A program made the position numbers and the translations under genes. This document shows positions 1,374-54,219 of a DNA stretch of 64,000 nucleotides, piece by piece. The notes under the pieces were generated by a model. The model had not been told where the DNA came from. It searched no databases and was given only the letters and a program-made list of their open reading frames with translations. Each line of letters starts with the position of its first letter. The stretch's first letter is position 1. Source of the DNA: an uncultured Candidatus Rokubacteria bacterium (GTDB taxonomy: Bacteria; Methylomirabilota; Methylomirabilia; Rokubacteriales; CSP1-6); assembly GCA_963827505.1 (NCBI GenBank), contig CAWHBD010000002.1, positions 393,692 through 457,691 of the forward strand, in the 5' to 3' direction.

Positions 1374-2636
1374 GCGCACGCTCGAGTTCCCCCTGGAAAC
1401 GCGGATGGGCCACGGTGAGCAACGCCGTGGCCCTCGCTGTGTCCGACAGCCCTCGCAGCCGCGCCGCCCCGTGCTCGGTCACGACCCAGTCGGCCAGGTA
1501 CCGAGGCGTGGTGACCGCCGCCCCCGCCGTCAGCCGCGGCACGATCCGCGAGACGGCGCCCTCCCGGCCCGTCGACGGCAGCGCGATCACCGACAGACCG
1601 CCGGCCGAGCGCGAGGCGCCCAGCACGAAGTCGAACTGCCCCCCGATCCCCGCCACCTGCCGCGGCCCCAGGCTCTCGGCGGTGACCTGTCCGGTCAGGT
1701 CCACCTCGAGCGCCGAGTTGATGGCGACGAACCGGTCGAGGCGCGCGATGACGTCGGGGTCGTGCGTGTAGGCCGCCGACTCCATGTTGACCGTGTCGCT
1801 GGCGCCGAGAAAGTCGAACGTGCGCCGCGTGCCCATGGCCTCGGCCAGGTCCATCCGCCCGCGATGCACGCGCTTGCGCGCGCCGGTCACGACGCCGCGC
1901 TCGACCAGGGCCACGCCATGGTCGACCAGCAGCGAGTGCAGGGCGAGGTCGCGGTGACCGGTCAAGCGCCTCGAGCACCGCCTGCGGAATGGCGCCCGAC
2001 GCCCACCTGGACGGCGGCGCCGTCCGGCACCAGGGCCGCCACGTGGGCGCCGATCGCGCGCTCGACCGCGCCCACCACCGGTGGCGGGTACTCCACCAGC
2101 GCGCTCGTCGACGTCCACGCGGATGTCGACCTGGCTGGCGTGCAGCCACGCATTGCCGCGGGTGCGCGGCATGCGCGGGATTGACCTGGGCGATGACGAG
2201 CGGGGCCAGCCGCGCCGCCGGCAGCGCCACGCCCACGCCGACGCCGAGGCTCAGGTAGCCGCGCGCGTCGGGCGGCGCGGTGTGCACCAGCACGCAGTCG
2301 GGCGGCCAGCGGCCGCCGGGCAGCGAACTCGGTCGCCACGTCGAAGTAGCGCACCGGCAGGAACTCGACGCGGCCGCGCCGGCGGGCGTCCTCCAGCCGG
2401 GGCGACATGTGCCAGGTGGCGTAGCGGAGCGCCGCACATTCCGGCCGGGCCCACGGATAGTCGCCGAGGTGGATCCCGCCCATGAGCGTGAGGTCGGGCA
2501 GCCGCTCGGACTGCCGGCAGATCTCGGCGACGAGCGCGCGCGGCTCCCCGCAGCCGGGCGGCAGCAGCACCCGCATGCCGGGCCGCAGCCGCTCGACGGC
2601 CTGCTTCGGCGTCATCGCGACGAACCCTCGCGCCAT
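1363..2636 (-). pseudogene. Acetyl-CoA hydrolase/transferase family protein (4-hydroxybutyrate CoA-transferase-like), about 5 frameshifts
   Basis: N-terminus MTPKQAVERLRPGMRVLLPPGCGEP...FLPVRYFDVATEF (frame of ORF 1962..2636). The following pieces DARGYLSLGVGVGVALPAARLAPLVIAQVNP, RMPRTRGNAWLHASQVD, YPPPVVGAVERAIGAHVAALVPDGAAVQVGVG, SGAIPQAVLEALD and GTRRTFDFLGASDTVNMESAAYTHDPDVIARLDRFVAINSALEVDLTGQVTAESLG are spread over three frames. Its 3' end overlaps the selW 3' end by 11 nt (convergent). Confidence 0.6.
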
Positions 2637-2690
2637 CGCGTCGCTATATACACCTTCCCGCCGCGCGAGGGCGGGCGATAATATGCGCCG

Positions 2691-2870
2691 ATGACCTGGA
2701 TCCGACGCACCCTCCTCTGCCTCGTCGCGCTCGTCGTGCTCGCCGGCTGCGCCGCGCCCGCCGCCTCGCCCCCGCGCGCCTCGCAGGCCCCGCGCACGCG
2801 CTGCCTCAGCAATCCCAACGAGACCGGGACCCGGCCGCTCCTCTTCCTGTTCTGCGTCGAGAGCCCGTAG
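2691..2870 (+). CDS. Small putative lipoprotein (59 aa), below the ORF-track length cutoff
   Basis: Translation is MTWIRRTLLCLVALVVLAGCAAPAASPPRASQAPRTRCLSNPNETGTRPLLFLFCVESP, a signal peptide with a LAGC lipobox. The region just upstream is AT-enriched (tatatacacc...gataatatg), which is rare in this window. GC3-rich codons. Confidence 0.35.
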   Translation: MTWIRRTLLCLVALVVLAGCAAPAASPPRASQAPRTRCLSNPNETGTRPLLFLFCVESP

Positions 2871-2887
2871 CCGCCGGCGGCGCCCAC

Positions 2888-3655
2888 GTGATGCGGGTGG
2901 CGTTCGTCACCGGCGGTGGTCGCGGCCTCGGGCGCGCGGTGGCGATGGCGCTGGCCCAGGCGGGACTCGCCGTGGCGGTCGGCGCCCGGACGCCGGAGCA
3001 GGTCGCGGCGGTGGTCGCGGAGATCCGCGCCGCCGGCGGGGAGGCGCTGGCGGTCGCGCTCGACGTGACGGAGCCGGCCTCGGTGACGGCGGCGGCCGCC
3101 GCCGCCGGCGCGCTGGGTCCGGTCGACGTCCTCGTCAACAACGCCGGCATCGCGGAGTCCGCCCCGTTCGTGCGCACCGACCTCGCGCTGTGGGAGCACC
3201 ACCTGCGTGTCAACGCCACCGGCCCTTACCTCACGGCGCGGGCCCTGCTGCCCGGCATGCTCGAGCGCCGGCGCGGCCGGGTGGTCAACGTCGCCTCCAT
3301 GGCCGGCCTGCACGGCGCGCCTTACGTGAGCGCGTATACGGCCTCCAAGCACGCGCTGGTCGGACTCACCCGGGCGCTGGCCGCCGAGGTGGCCGGGCGC
3401 GGCGTCACCATCAATGCCGTCTGCCCGGGCTTCGCGGCAACCGACATCGTGTGGAACGGGGCCCGCGCCATCGCGGCGCGGACCGGGCGCGCCTTCGAGG
3501 ACGCGGTGGCGGCGATGGCCGCCCTGAACCCGGGTGGCCGTCTGATCGAGCCGGCCGAGGTCGCCGACGCGGTTCTGCGCCTCGTGCGCGACGACACCAT
3601 CAACGGCGAGGCCGTCGTGCTCGACGGGACCGCGCCCCAGCGGAGGGAGCCATGA
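2888..3655 (+). CDS. SDR-family short-chain dehydrogenase/reductase (3-oxoacyl-ACP reductase-like)
   Basis: Intact 255 aa ORF. TGGGRGLG cofactor motif, NNAG and a YxxxK catalytic pair (YTASKHAL). Its stop overlaps the next start (ATGA). Confidence 0.85.
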   Translation: MMRVAFVTGGGRGLGRAVAMALAQAGLAVAVGARTPEQVAAVVAEIRAAGGEALAVALDVTEPASVTAAAAAAGALGPVDVLVNNAGIAESAPFVRTDLALWEHHLRVNATGPYLTARALLPGMLERRRGRVVNVASMAGLHGAPYVSAYTASKHALVGLTRALAAEVAGRGVTINAVCPGFAATDIVWNGARAIAARTGRAFEDAVAAMAALNPGGRLIEPAEVADAVLRLVRDDTINGEAVVLDGTAPQRREP

Positions 3656-7150: not shown

Positions 7151-7177
7151 CGTTCGGCCCGCTGGCGCGGGCGGCGC

Positions 7178-7347
7178 CGCTGGGCGGCGGGGGCGGCAGG
7201 GCGACAGGGCCTCCTGAGGTTCCGTTGGCTTCGATCGTGTAGGGCCTCACGTAGGACCAGGCTCCGACCGCGCCTTCGCGCGCCGGGTCGTCTCTCGCGG
7301 AACCGAAGGGGGCCCTGTCGCCCTGCCGCCCCCGCCGCCCACCGGCG
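7178..7347. repeat. Structured intergenic repeat, family 1, copy 1: ~38-bp self-complementary arms around a ~100-bp conserved core
   Basis: Left arm GCTGGGCGGCGGGGGCGGCAGGGCGACAGGGCC pairs with right arm GGCCCTGTCGCCCTGCCGCCCCCGCCGCCCAC. The core ...GGCTTCGATCGTGTAGGGCCTCACGTAGGACCAGGCTCCGAC... is ~90% identical to the reverse complement of 17200-17285. Lies between the convergent esterase and PQQ-dehydrogenase genes. Confidence 0.7.
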
Positions 7348-17131: not shown

Positions 17132-17157
17132 GCGCGTTCCCCCGCGCCGGCCACGCC

Positions 17158-17330
17158 GGTGCGCGGGGAGCGGGCGATGGAGCGACAGGGTCCCCTTCGG
17201 TTCCGCGAGAGACGACCCGATGCGCCGTGGCATGGTCGGAGCCTGTCCTACGTGTGGCCCTACACGATCGAAGCCAACGGACCCTCAGGAAACCCTGTCG
17301 CTCCATCGCCCGCTCCCCGCGCACCGGCGT
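17158..17330. repeat. Structured intergenic repeat, family 1, copy 2 (core inverted relative to copy 1)
   Basis: Arms CCGGTGCGCGGGGAGCGGGCGATGGAGCGACAGGGTCCCC and GGAAACCCTGTCGCTCCATCGCCCGCTCCCCGCGCACCGG form a perfect ~38-bp stem. The arm sequence differs from copy 1 (GCAGGG vs ATGGAG) but the changes are compensated on the partner arm. Core GGTTCCGCGAGAGACGACCC...GTCGGAGCCTGTCCTACGTGTGGCCCTACACGATCGAAGCCAACGG. Lies between the convergent MBL-REC and hydroxylase genes. Confidence 0.7.
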
Positions 17331-34459: not shown

Positions 34460-34665
34460 GATGATTCGCCCCCCGGGTTGCGGTGGGGGAGTCCGGTGCT
34501 CGGGGTGGGGTCCGTGGACCCGTTCCCGCCAACCATCACCGTACGCCCCCCAGCCTGATGGAGCCCAGCCGCCAACGGCCCGATGCGGACTCCAGCCCCG
34601 TGGTGCCACGGACCCCACCCCGAGCACCGGACTCCTCCACCGCAACACGGGCCGGACGAATCGCC
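34460..34665. repeat. Large inverted repeat / hairpin element: ~57-bp arms, 88-bp spacer
   Basis: GATGATTCGCCCCCCGGGTTGCGGTGGGGGAGTCCGGTGCTCGGGGTGGGGTCCGTGG (34460-34517) is near-perfectly complementary to CCACGGACCCCACCCCGAGCACCGGACTCCTCCACCGCAACACGGGCCGGACGAATCGCC (34606-34665). It sits 12 nt after the stop of the + gene and 11 nt before the stop of the convergent amidase. Confidence 0.65.
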
Positions 34666-34675
34666 GCTCCGGAGA

Positions 34676-36020
34676 CTAGGCGGCGGGCGAGACCGCTCCC
34701 ACCAGCCAGCGTGCGGTGCGCAGGAGACGCGCATCGCCGTGGCGAGGCCCGACGAGCTGGACACCGAGCGGCAGGCCGTTAGCGCCGCGCATGATGGGCA
34801 CGCTGATGGCGGGCATCCCGGCGAGCGTCCACAGCGCGCAGAAGGCCGGATCGCCGGTCGAGTCGAGTCCCGCCGGCGCCGTGCCGGGGGCGGCCGGGGT
34901 CAGGATGGCGTCGTAACGCTGCTCGAACAGCTCCGTGAAGCTCGCCTGCAGCTCGGGGATGCGGGCCAGCGCGCGCAGGTAGTGGGGGGCGCGCACCTCG
35001 TGGCCGCGCTCGATGCTGGCCCGCAGCGAGTTCGACAGCCCCGCCCGTCCGGTCCGCCATTCCCGGTCGAGGTTCACCGCCAGCTCGGCGTTCATGATGG
35101 TGCGATGCCACTCGGCCGTCTCCGCGGCCGGCCTCACCAGCTCCACCTCCTCTAGGCGATCGCCGAGCACGGCGGCCAGCTCCTCGAAGGCCTCGCGGGC
35201 GTCGGGGTCGACCGCGTCCCACATCGTCGTCTTCACGAAAGCGAACATCGGCGGCAGCGGGGGCTCCTCGCCAGCGAGCTGCCGGTAGGGCACACGCGCG
35301 CGTGGCCGGGTGTCGGGATCACGCTCGTCGTGGCCGGCCAGCTGCTCCAGTAAGCAGAGCGAGATCGTCGATGGAGCGCGCGAACAGCCCCACGTGATCC
35401 AGCGTGCGCGAGAGCTGGAACATGCCGTGGCGCGGAATCAGCCCGTGGGTCGGCTTGAGGCCGTACACGCCGCAGTAGGAGGCGGGCCGGATGGTGGAGC
35501 CGCCGGTCTGGCTGCCGAGCGCCAGCGGGACCATGCCCGCCGCCACCGCCGCCGCCGAGCCGCTCGACGATCCACCCGGCGTGTGGGCCGGGTCGTGCGG
35601 GTTGCGCGTCTTGCCCGGCTGTCGCGTCGCGAACTCCGTGGTCACCGTCTTGCCCAGGATGACCGCGCCCGCCCCCCGCAGCATCGCCGTCACGCTCGCG
35701 TCCCGGGAAGGCGTCCGGCCGGCGTGCAGCACCGAGCCGTTCTCGGTCGGCATGTCGGCGGTGTCGATGATGTCCTTCAAGGCCACCGGCACGCCGTGCA
35801 GCGGCCCGATCACTCGGCCCGACATCCGCGCCTCGTCCGCCGCCCTCGCCTGCCCCAGCGCCAGCTCCGGGTCCAGGAAGGTCCACGCCTCGACGTCCCG
35901 ATCGACGGCCCGGATGCGCGCCAGGCACGCCTCGACCAGCTGCTCCGAGCTGATCACCCCATCCCGAATCAGCCGCGCCCCCTCCCCCGCCGACACCGCA
36001 TACAGATCCGTCAAATCCAT
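34676..36020 (-). pseudogene. Amidase (amidase-signature family, GatA-like), single frameshift near 35325-35345
   Basis: N-terminal 233 aa intact, including the GGSSSGSAAAVAAG signature and VPVALKDII. The C-terminal 200 aa sit in the other frame (…GLPLGVQLVGPRHGDARLL). A 1-nt indel at ...IDDLALL|LEQLAGHDERDP. Confidence 0.6.
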
Positions 36021-36150
36021 CCCACCACCCCCTCCTCCCCATTGGCTCCACGCCCAGCACCCACGTGCCCGCGTAATCCTAGCCCAGGACGACGTCAGCC
36101 GGCGTCTCTCGCCCCTCCGCCAACAACCCTTATCAGCGAGACGGTCTGAT

Positions 36151-36267
36151 CAACCGCGCTCGAGCGCGGGCTTCGCCCGCGCAATCCGGTCCGAGGGGGA
36201 GGCAGGAAGGAGCGCGACGCCAGTCGCGCGACGACCGCCGGAAGGGGGACGAAGTCCCCCTCCGGGC
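36151..36267 (-). repeat. Structured repeat, family 2, copy A (minus orientation), starting at the dctM stop codon
   Basis: On the minus strand: TAG-CCCGGAGGGGGACTTCGTCCCCCTTCCGGCGGTCGTCGCGCGACTGGCGTCGCGCTCCTTCCTGCCTCCCCCT...GCGCGGGCGAAGCCCGCGCTCGAGCGCGGTTG. Three hairpins (GGGGGAC/GTCCCCC; GCGCGAC/GTCGCGC; GCGCGGG-cgaa-CCCGCGC containing the GCGAAGC mini-hairpin) plus a CU-rich tract CUCCUUCCUGCCUCCCCCU. About 85% identical to 53897-54018. Confidence 0.65.
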
Positions 36268-38301
36268 TACTTCCCGTAGAGAAACTCCGGCAGCCACAGC
36301 GTCATGCCCGGCCACACGTGCATGAAGACGAGACACACGACCACGATGATCATGTACGGCATCATGCCCGCGAAGATCTGGTTGAGCGTGACGTGCTTGG
36401 GGGCCACTCCCTTCAGGTAGAACGCCGACATCGCCACCGGCGGCGACAGGAACGCGGCCTGCAGGTTGACCGCGACCATGGTGCCGAAGAGCAGCGGATC
36501 GATCTGGAAGTGGGTCAGCAAGGGGATGAAGATCGGACAGAAGATGACGATGATCTCGGTCCACTCCAGCGGCCAGCCGAGCAGGAAGATGATGAGCTGG
36601 GCGATGATCGTGAACCCCAGCGGGCGACAGGTTCAGGCCGAGCACCCAGCGCTCGATGAGCGACTGGCCCCCGTGCAGGGCGAACACGGCGGAGAAGAGG
36701 GCGGAGCCGACGAAGAGCCAGCACACCATCGCCGTCGTCTTGGCGGTGAGGAAGGTCGACTGCTTGAGGTTCTCGCGGAGCTCGGGGGAGTCCCGCAGGT
36801 GCCACAGGCCCGGCACGACGGTGCCCAGGAACGTCCCGCCGATCGAGCCGGCCACCAGCAGCGAGGCCAGCGTCTCTTCCTGCCACCAGCCGAGCGTGAC
36901 CCCGACCACGAACCCGACCAGGCTCCACCACCAGACCTGGCGCGGGTAGCGCGCCATCACCGCCAGGTAGAGCGCGCCGAGGGCGCCGATGGCGGCCGAC
37001 TCCGTCGCGGTGCAGATGCCGAACAGGATCACCGCCAGCACCACCGCGGTGAGCACGCCGAGCGGCACGACCGAGACGATCAGCTCCTTGAGGATCTCGA
37101 GCTGCTCGCCGTCCATCCGCCAGAAGTAGACGGCGAGCAGGAGCCCCGAGAACGCCGCCAGCCCCCAGAACCAGGGATAGAAGTGCGCGGGCACCTTGCC
37201 GGCCGACGTCACCGCCGTGGCGTCCCGCAGCGACGTCATCTCCTCGGGTGGCCCCTCGGTTCGCGGTGAGCGCGCCGTGCTCTCCGACGAGGCCCCCGAC
37301 CCCAGCTCCTGCACGGGCTCAGCCTCCACGGCGGAGCCCAGCTCCTGCGGCTTGTCCTCGCCGGCGGCGACCGGCGCGGCGCGGCGGTGCCGGGGCAGCC
37401 GCGACGGGCCGTGGGCTCGGCGCCGGGGCGAGCTGCCGTGACCTCCGGGGCGTTGTAGACGACGACGTACCACCACGTCGCCCCGAAGGTGCCGGCCGTC
37501 GAGCAGGACGGGCACCGCCAGCGCGGCGACGTCCCGCGCGATCGCCCGGTAGCCGGCGCCGGCGGCCGCTCGGGCCGGCCGAAGGGCGGCGCCGAGGAGC
37601 CCGGGCACGATGCGGCCCGAGCGCCCGCGCTCCAGCGCGGCCAGGTAGGCCGGCACCGCGACGCGATACTGGTCGGGCGCCAGCTTGGGGGCGATCTTCG
37701 GGTTGATGATCGCCCAGCCCAGGATGTAGACGAGGTAGAGGAACGTCAGGAAGAAGCCCGGCAGCATCGCCGCCGCGTACAGCTTGACGATCGACTGGCC
37801 GGCCACCGCCGCGTAGACGATCAGCATGACCGAGGGGGGGATCAGGATGCCCAGCGTGCCCCCCGCGGTGATGGCCCCCGAGGCCAGCCGGATGTCGTAG
37901 CCCGCCTTGAGCATCGGCCGCAGGGCGATGACGCCCATGAGCACGACGACGGCCCCGACGATGCCGGAGGCGATGCCCCAGAAGGCGCACACCAGCAGCG
38001 TCGTCACCGCCAGCGAGGCCGGCACGCGGCGGAAGGCGAGCTGGACGCTGTGGAACATGCGGTCGACCAGCGCCGCCCGCTCCATGATGTAGCCCATGAA
38101 GACGAACAGCGGGACCGACAGCAGGGTGTCGTTGGTCATCACCCCGTAGGTGCGCTGGGCGATGAGGTCGAAGATCCGGTTGTCGTACCAGTGGGCCCCG
38201 GGCACCCAGAACGCGATGAACCCGAAGACCATGCCGAGGCCCATCAGCGTGAACGCGGTCGGGTAGCCCATCATGATGGCGACCACGATGAGTCCCAGCA
38301 T
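36267..38301 (-). pseudogene. dctM: TRAP transporter large permease DctM, one frameshift near 36590-36610; possible ~150-aa low-complexity insert
   Basis: N-terminus MLGLIVVAIMMGYPTAFTLMGLGMVFGFIAF...; central FYPWFWGLAAFSGLLLAVYFWRMDGEQLEILKELIVSVVPLGVLTAVVLAVILFGICTATESAAIGALGALYLAV; C-terminus in another frame (LTHFQIDPLLFGTMVAVNLQAAFLSPPVAMSAFYLKGVAPKHVTLNQIFAGMMPYMIIVVVCLVFMHVWPGMTLWLPEFLYGK-stop). Confidence 0.6.
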
Positions 38302-38325
38302 CGATGAGACCGAGCGAGGGATCGC

Positions 38326-52987: not shown

Positions 52988-53898
52988 GTGGCCATCGGTT
53001 CCCTGCCCTCCTCCACGCTCGCCTACGCCGACGAGGTCCGGCCGGCCGCCGGCGCCTCTCGCGCGTGGCGCAAGTTCGCGCGCAACCCGGCCGCCCTGGT
53101 CGGCGCGCTCATCCTCGCGATCGTGGTCGGGGCGGCGCTGGCGCGCGCCGTGGATCGCGCCCCACGACCCGGCCAAGCAGAGCCTGATCCGGCGGTTCAC
53201 ACCTCCGGTGTGGGCGGCGGGCGGCAACCCGACCTACCTGCTCGGCACCGATCAGGTCGGACGCGACATCCTGAGCCGCATCATCCACGGCGCCCGCATC
53301 TCGCTGCTCGTCGGTGTGCTGGCGGTCATCGTCAGCGTGCTGGTCGGGGTGACGCTGGGGCTCGTCAGCGGGTTCGTGGGCGGGCGCGTGGACACCGTGC
53401 TCATGACGATCGTCGACATCACGCTGTCGTTCCCGCAGATCCTCCTGGCCCTGGCCTTCGTGGCCGCGCTGGGCCCGAGCCTCGTCACGATCATCGCTCG
53501 TGCTGGGCCTGACGGGCTGGGAGCGCTACGCGCGGGTGGTCCGGGCCGAGGTGCTGGCCCTGCGCGAGAAGGACTTCGTCGAGGCGGCGCGAGCGCTCGG
53601 CATCGGCGCCCCCCGGATCCTGCTGCGCCACGTCCTGCCCAACACGTTCTCGTCGATCGTGGTGCTGTCGACGCTGCAGGTCGCCCAGGCCATCCTGCAG
53701 GAGGCGGCGCTGTCGTTCCTCGGCGTGGGCTCGGGCCGGAGCTACCCGACGTGGGGCCAGATGATCGCGCTCGGCCGGGACTTCGTCAGCGTGGCCTGGT
53801 GGCTGCCGACCTTCCCGGGCCTGGCCATCCTGGCCACGGTGCTGGCCATCAACCTCGTCGGCGACCGGCTCCGCGACGCGGTGGATCCAAGAATTTAG
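52988..53898 (+). pseudogene. ABC peptide transporter permease (DppC/OppC-like), 2 frameshifts near 53145 and 53500
   Basis: MAIGSLPSSTLAYADEVRPAAGASRAWRKFARNPAALVGALILAIVVGAALA | PWIAPHDPAKQSLIRRFTPPVWAAGGNPTYLLGTDQVGRDILSRIIHGARISLLVGVLAVIVSVLVGVTLGLVSGFVGGRVDTVLMTIVDITLSFPQILLALAFVAALGPSLVTII | VLGLTGWERYARVVRAEVLALREKDFVEAARALGIGAPRILLRHVLPNTFSSIVVLSTLQVAQAILQEAALSFLGVGSGRSYPTWGQMIALGRDFVSVAWWLPTFPGLAILATVLAINLVGDRLRDAVDPRI-stop. Confidence 0.6.
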
Positions 53899-54018
53899 CT
53901 CGGAGGGGACTCGTCCCCCTTCCGACGGTCGTCGCGCGCCTTTCGGCGCGCTCCTTCCTGCCTCCCCCTAGCTCCAAAAACAGGATGGCGCGGGCGAAGC
54001 CCGCGCTCGAAAGCGTTG
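53897..54018 (+). repeat. Structured repeat, family 2, copy B (plus orientation), starting at the stop codon of the last dpp permease gene
   Basis: TAG-CTCGGAGGGGACTCGTCCCCCTTCCGACGGTCGTCGCGCGCCTTTCGGCGCGCTCCTTCCTGCCTCCCCCTAGCTCCAAAAACAGGATGGCGCGGGCGAAGCCCGCGCTCGA. Same three hairpins as copy A, with compensatory change in hairpin 2 (GCGCGCC/GGCGCGC here vs GCGCGAC/GTCGCGC in copy A). Confidence 0.65.
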
Positions 54019-54030
54019 TATCATTCCGTC

Positions 54031-54219
54031 ATGCCAGCGAAGGTTCCTTGGTTGCCGTCGCAGTTGCCGCCGGGGGCGAGGCCGGAGAAGTGTCCGCGGT
54101 GCGGGAAGGCGGGGTTCATTCCGTGGACATTGCGGCGCGACGATCAGAGCAAGGTCGTCATGCGCACCTGGGTCTGCACGGAATGCCAGCTCACCCAGGA
54201 GCGCCCCGAGCCCGAGTAG
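54031..54219 (+). CDS. Small zinc-ribbon protein (62 aa, two CxxC pairs)
   Basis: MPAKVPWLPSQLPPGARPEKCPRCGKAGFIPWTLRRDDQSKVVMRTWVCTECQLTQERPEPE. CPRC...CTEC zinc-ribbon spacing, GC3-rich codons. Begins 13 nt after repeat copy B. The track's 54016 start is a TTG and is less likely. Confidence 0.4.
   Translation: MPAKVPWLPSQLPPGARPEKCPRCGKAGFIPWTLRRDDQSKVVMRTWVCTECQLTQERPEPE

Follow-up and report, generated by a model that had tools for sequence, protein, structure and literature searches.

What is the structured element that begins directly behind the stop codon of a DppC-like permease gene in a 64,000-nt stretch of DNA (the window) from an uncultured Candidatus Rokubacteria bacterium, and why does a second copy follow the stop codon of a dctM gene in the same window? 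Rokubacteria are abundant, uncultured soil bacteria, and to our knowledge nothing has been reported on their post-transcriptional signals or repeat content. A preliminary description of the window had placed a three-hairpin module after the DppC-like stop codon and a second copy, in the same relative orientation, after the dctM stop codon. Both were confirmed: copy B occupies positions 53899-54015 of the plus strand behind the TAG at 53896-53898, and copy A occupies 36147-36266 on the minus strand. They belong to an undescribed, phylum-restricted (Rokubacteria/Methylomirabilota) family of ~115-bp mosaic interspersed repeats. We think it probable that the two copies are a mobile mosaic repeat resembling the repetitive extragenic palindromic (REP) sequences and bacterial interspersed mosaic elements (BIMEs), which homes to the 3' ends of genes and would be co-transcribed as 3' untranslated region (3'UTR) or intercistronic RNA. 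The preliminary description had overlooked that the repeat is mobile and mosaic, with insertion, deletion and replacement variants, and that it is a specific target of insertion sequences (IS) of the IS110 family.

The similarity of the two copies is not due to chance, since the window contains a 20-mer from their C/U-rich tract twice, with 0.00 occurrences expected, and their covariance-model scores stand far above all other matches. An unfiltered scan of all 64 kb ranked copies A and B at 119.7 and 110.3 bits, with the third-ranked match at 16.6. Their mean column identity was 85% over 161-nt stretches including flanks and 82-92% in the repeat arms. No extra remnants or diverged copies were found in whole-window scans. 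The earlier statement that this is no described element held as well: Rfam gave no matches at gathering scores in the whole window, and at E ≤ 10 the element itself gave sub-threshold matches alone, the best at 23 bits against a gathering score of 40. A literature search for Rokubacteria repeats found nothing relevant.

Over 200 additional copies were collected from genomes and metagenomes (fetched loci carry L numbers), and the true full-length ones stem almost entirely from Rokubacteria/Methylomirabilota DNA. One genome per species was scanned for the exact pattern CTCCTTCCTGCCTCCCCC, which yielded 52 loci, about 35 of them with a complete element, almost all in metagenome-assembled genomes of Candidatus Rokubacteria, Rokuibacteriota or Methylomirabilota. 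Metagenomes were scanned with the 20-mer TCCGRCGGTCGTCGCRCGCC, taken from a different part of the element than the genome pattern. This gave at least 120 loci, with about 105 true copies among the 120 matches listed, and these too were almost all Rokubacteria/Methylomirabilota records. Homologues of the DppC protein encoded next to copy B were likewise labeled Methylomirabilota or Rokubacteria. The single match on a viral contig lay inside a coding sequence and was dismissed as chance. Many copies were found at contig ends, where a repeat that interrupts short-read assemblies would typically lie. Just a few further copies were present in the fetched flanking DNA, and together with the two copies in 64 kb this suggests, as a rough extrapolation, tens rather than hundreds of copies per genome. 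Element-bearing contigs also occurred in bins labeled Acidobacteria, Verrucomicrobiia, Acidoferrum, Binatia and Limnocylindria (L005, L012, L014, L038, L046). Such bins are likely to contain mis-binned Rokubacteria contigs, because the flanks of L014, for which the comparison was made, are 96-99% identical to Methylomirabilota loci.

The unit is ~115 nt long and is built from three GC-rich hairpins of 18-30 nt and two near-invariant unpaired tracts, in the order hairpin 1, linker CGGTCGTC, hairpin 2, C/U tract (CTCCTYCCTGCCTCCCCC), variable spacer, hairpin 3 and CTCGRA tail. A covariance model with three helices was built and 102 metagenome copies were realigned to it. Standard pairs filled 97.5% of the cells, and double-sided changes occurred at 19 of 27 pairs (145 cells), distributed across all three hairpins. 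None of 500 shuffles attained the observed pairing and covariation values, and in slid controls 44-61% of the cells were paired. The three hairpins of the preliminary description thus covary, but hairpin 1 is longer than described. It has a 12-bp helix (YCGGAGGGGGRC/GYCCCCC(T)TCCGR) with one bulged T, and 10 of its 12 pairs show double-sided changes (101 distinct copies); the basal pair changes from T-A (68 copies) to C-G (24), and an upper pair from G-C (72) to A-T (16) to C-G (3). In hairpin 2 a G-C pair (64 copies) is replaced by A-T (25), and the second pair is C-G in 74 copies and C·A in 21. Two positions of hairpin 3 swap CG and GC (12 and 33 copies). Two additional pairings were rejected. 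A possible helix pairing CCUG in the C/U tract with CAGG ahead of hairpin 3 was fully formed in just 37 of 89 copies, without covariation. A small hairpin proposed by RNAalifold (CGAC-GGTC-GTCG) competes with the base of hairpin 1 and has weaker support than the Y2-R pair, which changes from T-A to C-G in 24 copies.

Outside the helices, the C/U tract is constrained in its primary sequence, since it is 90-97% conserved per position in 77 copies selected without using the tract, while the same copies differ freely in their loops and in the spacer that precedes hairpin 3. This spacer measures 0-30 nt across copies and is free in sequence. The tract includes two CCUCC/CUCCU motifs that resemble an anti-Shine-Dalgarno sequence, and the segment from the 3' arm of hairpin 1 to hairpin 3 holds 33 C and 16 G in 63 nt (C/G ratio 2.1). 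The linker CGGTCGTC shows no variation in the genome set; among metagenome copies its conservation is not independent, because the pattern used for that search included the linker. On the sense strand the loops of hairpin 1 read TTC, TTT or TGC (GAA, AAA or GCA antisense), that of hairpin 2 TNNC (GNNA antisense), and those of hairpin 3 GAA, AAA or GGA. These mirror-image loop spectra identify hairpins 1 and 3 as one hairpin type occurring in two opposite orientations, an arrangement known from BIMEs and REP doublets forming hairpins (REPINs). The ends of the element, CTCGGAG.. and ..CTCGRA, are direct, not inverted. Mosaic variants have hairpin 3 duplicated or missing, or lack hairpin 2.

Copy B shows the complete arrangement. 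Between the stop codon of the DppC-like gene and the start codon of a zinc-ribbon open reading frame (ORF), at 53896-54033, the order is TAG-C-TCGGAGGGGAC-TC-GTCCCCCTTCCGA-CGGTCGTC-hairpin 2-TCCTTCCTGCCTCCCCCT-18-nt spacer-hairpin 3-TCGAAAGCG-TTGTATCATTCCGTC-ATG. Its limits (53899-54015) were set by comparison of naive and filled alleles, and covariance model R1 gave the score of 110.3 bits. Hairpin 1 (53900-53925), supported by folding and covariation, has its first paired base 1 nt past the stop codon. It is followed by the linker (53926-53933), hairpin 2 (GCGCGCC-TTTC-GGCGCGC, 53934-53951, covarying) and the conserved C/U tract TCCTTCCTGCCTCCCCCT (53952-53969), which contains the IS110 insertion point CCTGCCT^CCCCC. 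The spacer (53970-53987) ends with a semi-conserved AGGATK, and the 8-bp, covarying hairpin 3 (GCGCGGGC-GAA-GCCCGCGC) spans 53988-54006. The 3' tail TCGAAAGCG (family consensus CTCGRA..) covers 54007-54015. Copy A lies immediately 3' of the DctM TAG and upstream of an amidase gene; the 119.7-bit match to model R1 covers 36157-36266. On the minus strand its parts are hairpin 1 (36238-36265), linker (36230-36237), hairpin 2 (36212-36229), C/U tract (36194-36211), spacer (36183-36193), hairpin 3 (36164-36182) and tail (36147-36163).

To describe the placement of the family relative to genes, 127 copies were collapsed to 102 distinct upstream flanks. A stop triplet ends 1-7 nt before the first paired base in 80 of these, at 1 nt in 37, 2 nt in 17, 3 nt in 8, 4 nt in 8, 5 nt in 6, 6 nt in 2 and 7 nt in 2; it is TAG in 34 cases, TGA in 29 and TAA in 17. 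In nine other flanks the copy follows a remnant of the 5' half of hairpin 1, and in the readable cases that remnant itself lies 3' of a stop codon. No nearby stop was present in 11 flanks and two were too short. A crude gene caller based on G+C content at third codon positions placed the end of a same-strand ORF at the adjoining stop in most evaluable contexts. In L017, which belongs to the group without a stop, the element begins 4 nt past a tRNA-Pro(GGG) gene, in the orientation of the tRNA. At the convergent gene pairs in L084, L147, L143 and L053 there is one sense-oriented copy per gene, as illustrated by L084 with copies at 2565-2677 (plus) and 2817-2921 (minus). Because convergent genes each have their own sense copy and the orientation flips within 140 nt, orientation tracks the gene and not the replication strand. 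The proposed tie to gene ends and gene orientation is therefore well founded, and the tally of 102 contexts does not show a random spread of orientations and locations.

The upstream genes are of many kinds. They include rpoA, a Rho-like ATPase gene, clpX, metK, ispH, divIVA, genes for DctM, ABC permeases and binding proteins, lpdA-like (dihydrolipoamide-dehydrogenase-like), htrA-like (PDZ protease) and isocitrate-lyase-family genes, the gene for a LuxR-type response regulator, and the tRNA gene. Since these genes are unrelated, the association with permeases and transporters suggested by the two copies in the window is coincidental. Downstream, 26 contexts have a same-strand gene and another 26 a convergent gene, the stop of the latter often being 8-31 nt away; the background of convergent junctions from the same loci is biased (39% against 50%), and we claim no enrichment of them. 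In several operons (L021, L023, L033, L085/L161, L109) the Shine-Dalgarno sequence and ATG of the next gene follow 20-35 nt past the element. The left flanks contain no target-site motif besides the stop codon (TAA, TAG or TGA at a variable offset of 0-6 nt). Stop codons beside elements are TGA in 46%, TAG in 37% and TAA in 17% of cases, against 59%, 34% and 7% at other genes of the same loci, which makes TAA 2.5-fold enriched (17% vs 7%; chi-square p = 0.003). A promoter scan found none within the element.

Comparison of related loci showed how such copies come and go. Alleles of the copy B site were retrieved by exact-protein look-ups; an earlier all-against-all comparison of the fetched loci had given two empty-site candidates, both too diverged for exact boundaries, one of which carried a different repeat in the same place. 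The naive allele, TGA-GTGCTATCATCGCCGC-ATG, is found in L177-L180 (DppC 87% identical; these include GCA_036258015.1) and starts TGA-GTGCTATCAT.. The filled allele, TAG-[CTCGG...CTCGRAAGCG]-GTKNTATCAT...-ATG, is present in the window and in L176 and L175, which are ~95.5% identical to it. Its right flank reads TAG-[element]-GTGATATCAT.., and GTKNTATCAT is common to the naive allele. The filled allele is thus a ~117-nt insertion precisely between the stop codon and the next base, without target-site duplication. In L175, a filled locus, an IS interrupts the C/U tract and hairpin 1 has lost 10 nt. A remnant-only allele, TAA-TCTGGAGAGGACTTCGTCT-ATG, occurs in L174 (97-99% identical to the window), where the decayed 5' arm and loop of hairpin 1 remain and the TATCAT box of the flank was lost with the deletion. 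This remnant, GGAGAGGAC at 2982-3000, lies 8 nt before the zinc-ribbon ATG, at the position expected of a Shine-Dalgarno sequence.

The copy A site gave a similar picture. Here L188 (TGA, 20 nt, ATG) and L189 have a naive dctM-amidase junction, and an element fills the junction in the window and in no fewer than seven further sequence variants. Remnants, either solo or leading a copy, were found in L011, L067, L075, L089, L099, L110, L120, L138, L143, L149, L157, L163 and L174, with breakpoints clustered 1-3 nt past the loop of hairpin 1. In L120 the leading remnant and the complete copy behind it are of different subtypes, which points to replacement and not simple duplication. The element is thus gained by precise insertion 3' of a stop codon or tRNA 3' end, in sense orientation and without target duplication, is lost via deletions that leave the 5' half of hairpin 1, and can be replaced or extended into mosaics.

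Four loci in independent contexts (L063, L074, L098, L175) carry an element that is split at CCTGCCT^CCCCC (CT core) by an IS that is always co-oriented with the element. The IS is ~1.13 kb in L063, L074 (246-1385) and L098; that in L175 (2465-3407) is shorter and has a truncated transposase gene. The junctions read ..CTGCCT|TGTAT.. and ..ACAGTTGCT|CCCCC.., and the encoded protein has the DEDD_Tnp_IS110 and Transposase_20 domains (Pfam). No IS110-family copy is present in the window. Members of this family use a bridge RNA to direct their insertion into REPs, around a CT core (PMC11208160, PMC12288879). In the left end of the IS, CTGCCT and GGGGGAG could represent candidate target guides of such a bridge RNA. 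These IS110-family elements use the C/U tract as a dedicated landing site and treat the repeat as a REP-like safe harbor, and this use of the tract is an independent sign of its genome-wide conservation.

Reported roles of REP sequences, which would also suit the present element, are mRNA 3' stabilization, Rho-dependent attenuation by BIMEs, and effects on translation when a REP lies ≤15 nt from the stop codon. Like the REP, BIME and REPIN-RAYT systems of Enterobacteria and Pseudomonas, the elements described here are short, GC-rich extragenic palindromes that are dispersed (102 distinct contexts), often lie close behind stop codons and within operons, and form mosaics with inverted modules and tandem and truncated variants. 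Both kinds of repeat also serve as specific targets of IS110/IS1111-family elements, here in four contexts (PMC11208160, PMC12288879). Unlike REPs, the element has no REP sequence similarity and no GTAG-type 5' tetranucleotide visible by the hairpins in the alignments, and no gene for a REP-associated tyrosine transposase (RAYT) turned up for it, no whole-genome RAYT search having been made. It combines three different hairpins in fixed order with two invariant unpaired tracts, is much stricter in its placement (near-strict sense orientation, 0-6 nt from the stop codon), and has a modest density, by extrapolation tens per genome against hundreds.

Other known systems share fewer or different traits. 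Palindrome-associated miniature elements derived from IS200/IS605 similarly have hairpins near both ends (hairpin 1 at the 5' end, hairpin 3 near the 3' end), strand-specific placement, and neither terminal inverted repeats (TIRs) nor target-site duplications. They insert 3' of a fixed 4-5-nt target and follow the replication strand, whereas the left flanks of our element share the stop codon alone and its orientation follows the gene; no TnpA partner turned up, and a partner gene was not searched for. Integron attC sites, such as the Vibrio cholerae repeats, are likewise structured repeats of ~60-140 nt right after an ORF stop and in ORF orientation. However, an attC site is one long imperfect palindrome with R''/L''-L'/R' boxes and a GTTRRRY core in cassette arrays beside an integrase gene, whereas the element has three separate hairpins without such boxes and is dispersed behind housekeeping genes (rpoA, clpX, metK). 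With TIR-type miniature inverted-repeat transposable elements (MITEs), such as the Neisseria Correia elements, it has in common that it is non-autonomous, intergenic, ~100-150 bp in size and, presumably, co-transcribed with its neighbors, but it lacks TIRs and made no target duplication at the one site with naive and filled alleles. The Rho utilization (rut) sites of Rho-dependent terminators are ~70-80 nt of C-rich, G-poor, unstructured RNA upstream of release sites. The element is also C-rich and G-poor (33 C vs 16 G per 63 nt) at the place where ribosomes leave the mRNA, but about half of its C-rich stretch is predicted to be paired (hairpin 2 and an arm of hairpin 1), the fully unpaired part is ~18-25 nt, and it also occurs inside tightly packed operons. 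The element fails the criteria for TIR-type MITEs, attC sites, intrinsic terminators and every Rfam family.

The resemblance to REPs and BIMEs suggests how the repeat may act in RNA. Given its position and orientation, the element would be transcribed as the first bases of a 3'UTR or intercistronic spacer, where it could behave as a stabilizer, pause site or attenuator in the manner of a REP or BIME. The very stable flanking hairpins would form barriers to 3'-to-5' exonucleases and sites of pausing or partial termination. Since a ribosome in the act of terminating would cover the start of hairpin 1, folding of this hairpin could be coupled to translation termination. The sequence-constrained C-rich tract may serve as a loading platform for a single-strand-binding factor. 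Our first guess for this factor is Rho, which would make the element a portable rut-like attenuator.

Several observations weigh against this proposal. We infer co-transcription, the 3' ends of transcripts and any stabilizing or terminating effect from the DNA sequence. The alignment showed no RNA-type wobble preference, with 14 G·U cells against 39 C·A/A·C cells (18 without one polymorphic pair), although these counts do not decide which strand is functional. The G..A-type loops, located on the antisense strand in hairpins 1 and 2 and on the sense strand in hairpin 3, fit DNA hairpins at least as well as a sense-strand RNA. Partition-function folding with 40-nt flanks predicted the C/U tract to be moderately unpaired, with a mean probability of 0.51 against 0.35 for the region. 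About 10% of the contexts break the placement rule: in L125/L110 and L103 the element is antisense between two opposite-strand genes, and in L033 it lies in a divergent region. No transposase or RAYT-like gene that could mobilize the element turned up, and no whole-genome search for one was made. Finally, the 81 tails examined have CTCGRA.. after hairpin 3 and no U-tract, and the next gene starting 20-35 nt past the element indicates that it is not an efficient terminator in several operons. On these two grounds the canonical intrinsic terminator among the earlier suggestions was rejected. At copy B a scan found no sense-strand terminator; the lone terminator-like match is antisense and relies on the copy's own spacer.

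The same observations can be accommodated by a purely selfish mobile element that acts at the DNA level, with single-stranded DNA hairpins recognized by a recombinase or HUH-type transposase and without a role for the transcribed RNA. We regard this as the main rival, possible though unlikely. The preference for gene ends and gene orientation would then stem from the insertion mechanism, a speculative route being via the displaced non-template strand just past the cover of the ribosome. Such a mode of life agrees with insertion without target duplication, gain and loss polymorphism among close relatives, mosaic variants, remnant breakpoints clustered just past the hairpin 1 loop, and the remnant followed by a full copy of another subtype in L120. 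The lack of a G·U excess over C·A and the GNA/GNNA loops on opposite strands in hairpins 1 and 2 versus hairpin 3, resembling inverted terminal hairpins, agree with it too; triloop hairpins of the d(GCGAAGC) type are exceptionally stable DNA mini-hairpins. On the other hand, neither a transposase or RAYT-like gene (for which no whole-genome search was made) nor a conserved target oligonucleotide besides stop codons turned up, and the primary sequence of the unpaired tracts is strongly constrained. Behind dctM the element was also seen in at least seven distinct sequence variants, with 83-92% identity among their 400-nt upstream flanks, and a replication-strand bias cannot explain how orientation flips with the gene within 140 nt at convergent pairs.

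The conserved C/U tract between stable hairpins, with its two anti-Shine-Dalgarno-like CCUCC/CUCCU motifs in an element that sits in sense orientation at 3' ends, could alternatively belong to a 3'UTR-derived, trans-acting small RNA (sRNA) that would be excised from many mRNAs and would pair with the Shine-Dalgarno sequences of target mRNAs. The same seed in tens of copies per genome behind unrelated genes is hard to square with specific regulation, however, the element has no terminator-like 3' end, and the tract is just ~50% unpaired in silico. The preliminary description had asked whether the tract is complementary to ribosome binding sites of neighboring genes; the complementarity is to generic GGAGG alone, with no specific partner on either strand of the window, and we consider an sRNA very unlikely. 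Least credible, with hardly any weight left to it, is a cis-acting leader or riboswitch-like element for the downstream gene, here the zinc-ribbon ORF. Copy B does end 15 nt before the ATG at 54031, and in some operons the next Shine-Dalgarno sequence and ATG follow within 20-35 nt. Against this earlier suggestion, the downstream partner varies (26 same-strand genes of differing kinds and 26 convergent genes), the constant neighbor is the upstream stop codon, and the zinc-ribbon gene has no upstream element in L177-L180 and L056, the latter having an element after the zinc-ribbon gene instead.

Beyond the REP/BIME-like repeat that we favor, a bolder combination can be imagined, for which we see only a slim chance: a 3'-end cassette that propagates itself by means of an insertion machinery able to read gene ends, and that the host, after insertion, uses as a portable Rho-loading or mRNA-stabilizing module. 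For example, a single-strand-specific recombinase might insert it into the non-template strand that is exposed where ribosomes stop shielding the transcript. If true, one mechanism would cover the offset of 0-6 bases from stops and tRNA ends, the sense orientation and the lack of target duplication, as well as the DNA-type loops of the hairpins and the finding that wobble pairs are not in excess.

A sense-oriented repeat that lands precisely behind stop codons and is kept across species amounts to a natural experiment in portable 3'UTR function, and it raises the puzzle of how a DNA element finds gene ends. In practical terms, the repeat explains breaks behind genes in short-read Rokubacteria assemblies and can serve as a lineage marker, with near-identical flanks in bins of other phyla indicating mis-binning. 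Together with its cognate IS110-family element it offers a natural multi-copy target for studies of bridge-RNA-type recombination in a new phylum.

The genes around the two copies require a comment on the assembly. The window has a G+C content of 71.5% and many of its genes are split over frames, including dppC, dctM, the amidase gene and others (52988-53898, 36133-38325, 35319-36149 and elsewhere). Compared with its close relative L174, a short-read assembly in which the genes are intact, the window has 16 single-base gaps in 2.4 kb, ~1 per 150 nt, which suggests that it is an error-prone long-read assembly rather than part of a genome rich in pseudogenes. Assembly errors may also account for the short 'tc' loop and for the run of just four G in hairpin 1 of copy B; at the corresponding position, a relative with 95.5% identity to the window carries the canonical GGAGGGGGAC-TTC-GTCCCCC. 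The 3' part of the dppC-like ABC permease gene (53407-53898, plus strand) matches Pfam BPD_transp_1 (8e-25), with OppC_N in the adjacent frame, the gene being split across two frames. The orthologue in L174 is unbroken (302 aa), and those in L175 and L176 are also intact. The 3' part of the gene for DctM, a tripartite ATP-independent periplasmic (TRAP) permease, lies at 36267-36632 on the minus strand (Pfam DctM, 5.5e-19), with its TAG at 36267-36269.

Outside the element, 15 nt behind the end of copy B, the zinc-ribbon ORF (54031-54219, plus strand, ATG at 54031) encodes 62 aa with weak zinc-ribbon Pfam matches. The protein is identical in L174 and has orthologues in L056 and L177-L180. The CxxC...CxxC ORF (54016-54219 with its upstream bases) is conserved in relatives (L056, L174-L180), with a TATCAT box 6-7 nt 5' of the ATG. 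As there is such a box and no Shine-Dalgarno sequence, the zinc-ribbon transcript may be leaderless, with its own promoter. The 3' end of the ORF overlaps a convergent LOG-family gene, by 29 nt in the window.

Other repeats were seen in passing. A second family in the window (7175-7347 and 17153-17330) forms ~175-nt hairpins with 50-53-nt arms that are 91-92% complementary and a ~73-nt loop; its two copies are mutually inverted and 82-86% alike. A third long palindrome, intergenic at 34472-34651, has 46-nt arms (96% complementary) and an 88-nt spacer. At the dctM-amidase junction of lower-GC relatives there are ~11-nt tandem repeats (GTTCAARCC-like; L187 1978-2040, L190 2248-2330). Another interspersed hairpin repeat, CCCTCTCCCC-NNN-GGGGAGAGGG followed by CAGGGTGAGGG, was found in L014 (three sites in 8 kb), L046, L133, L151 and L160. 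In L151 the CCCTCTCCCC-type repeat occupies the post-stop position that is held by the element studied here in the orthologous L015.

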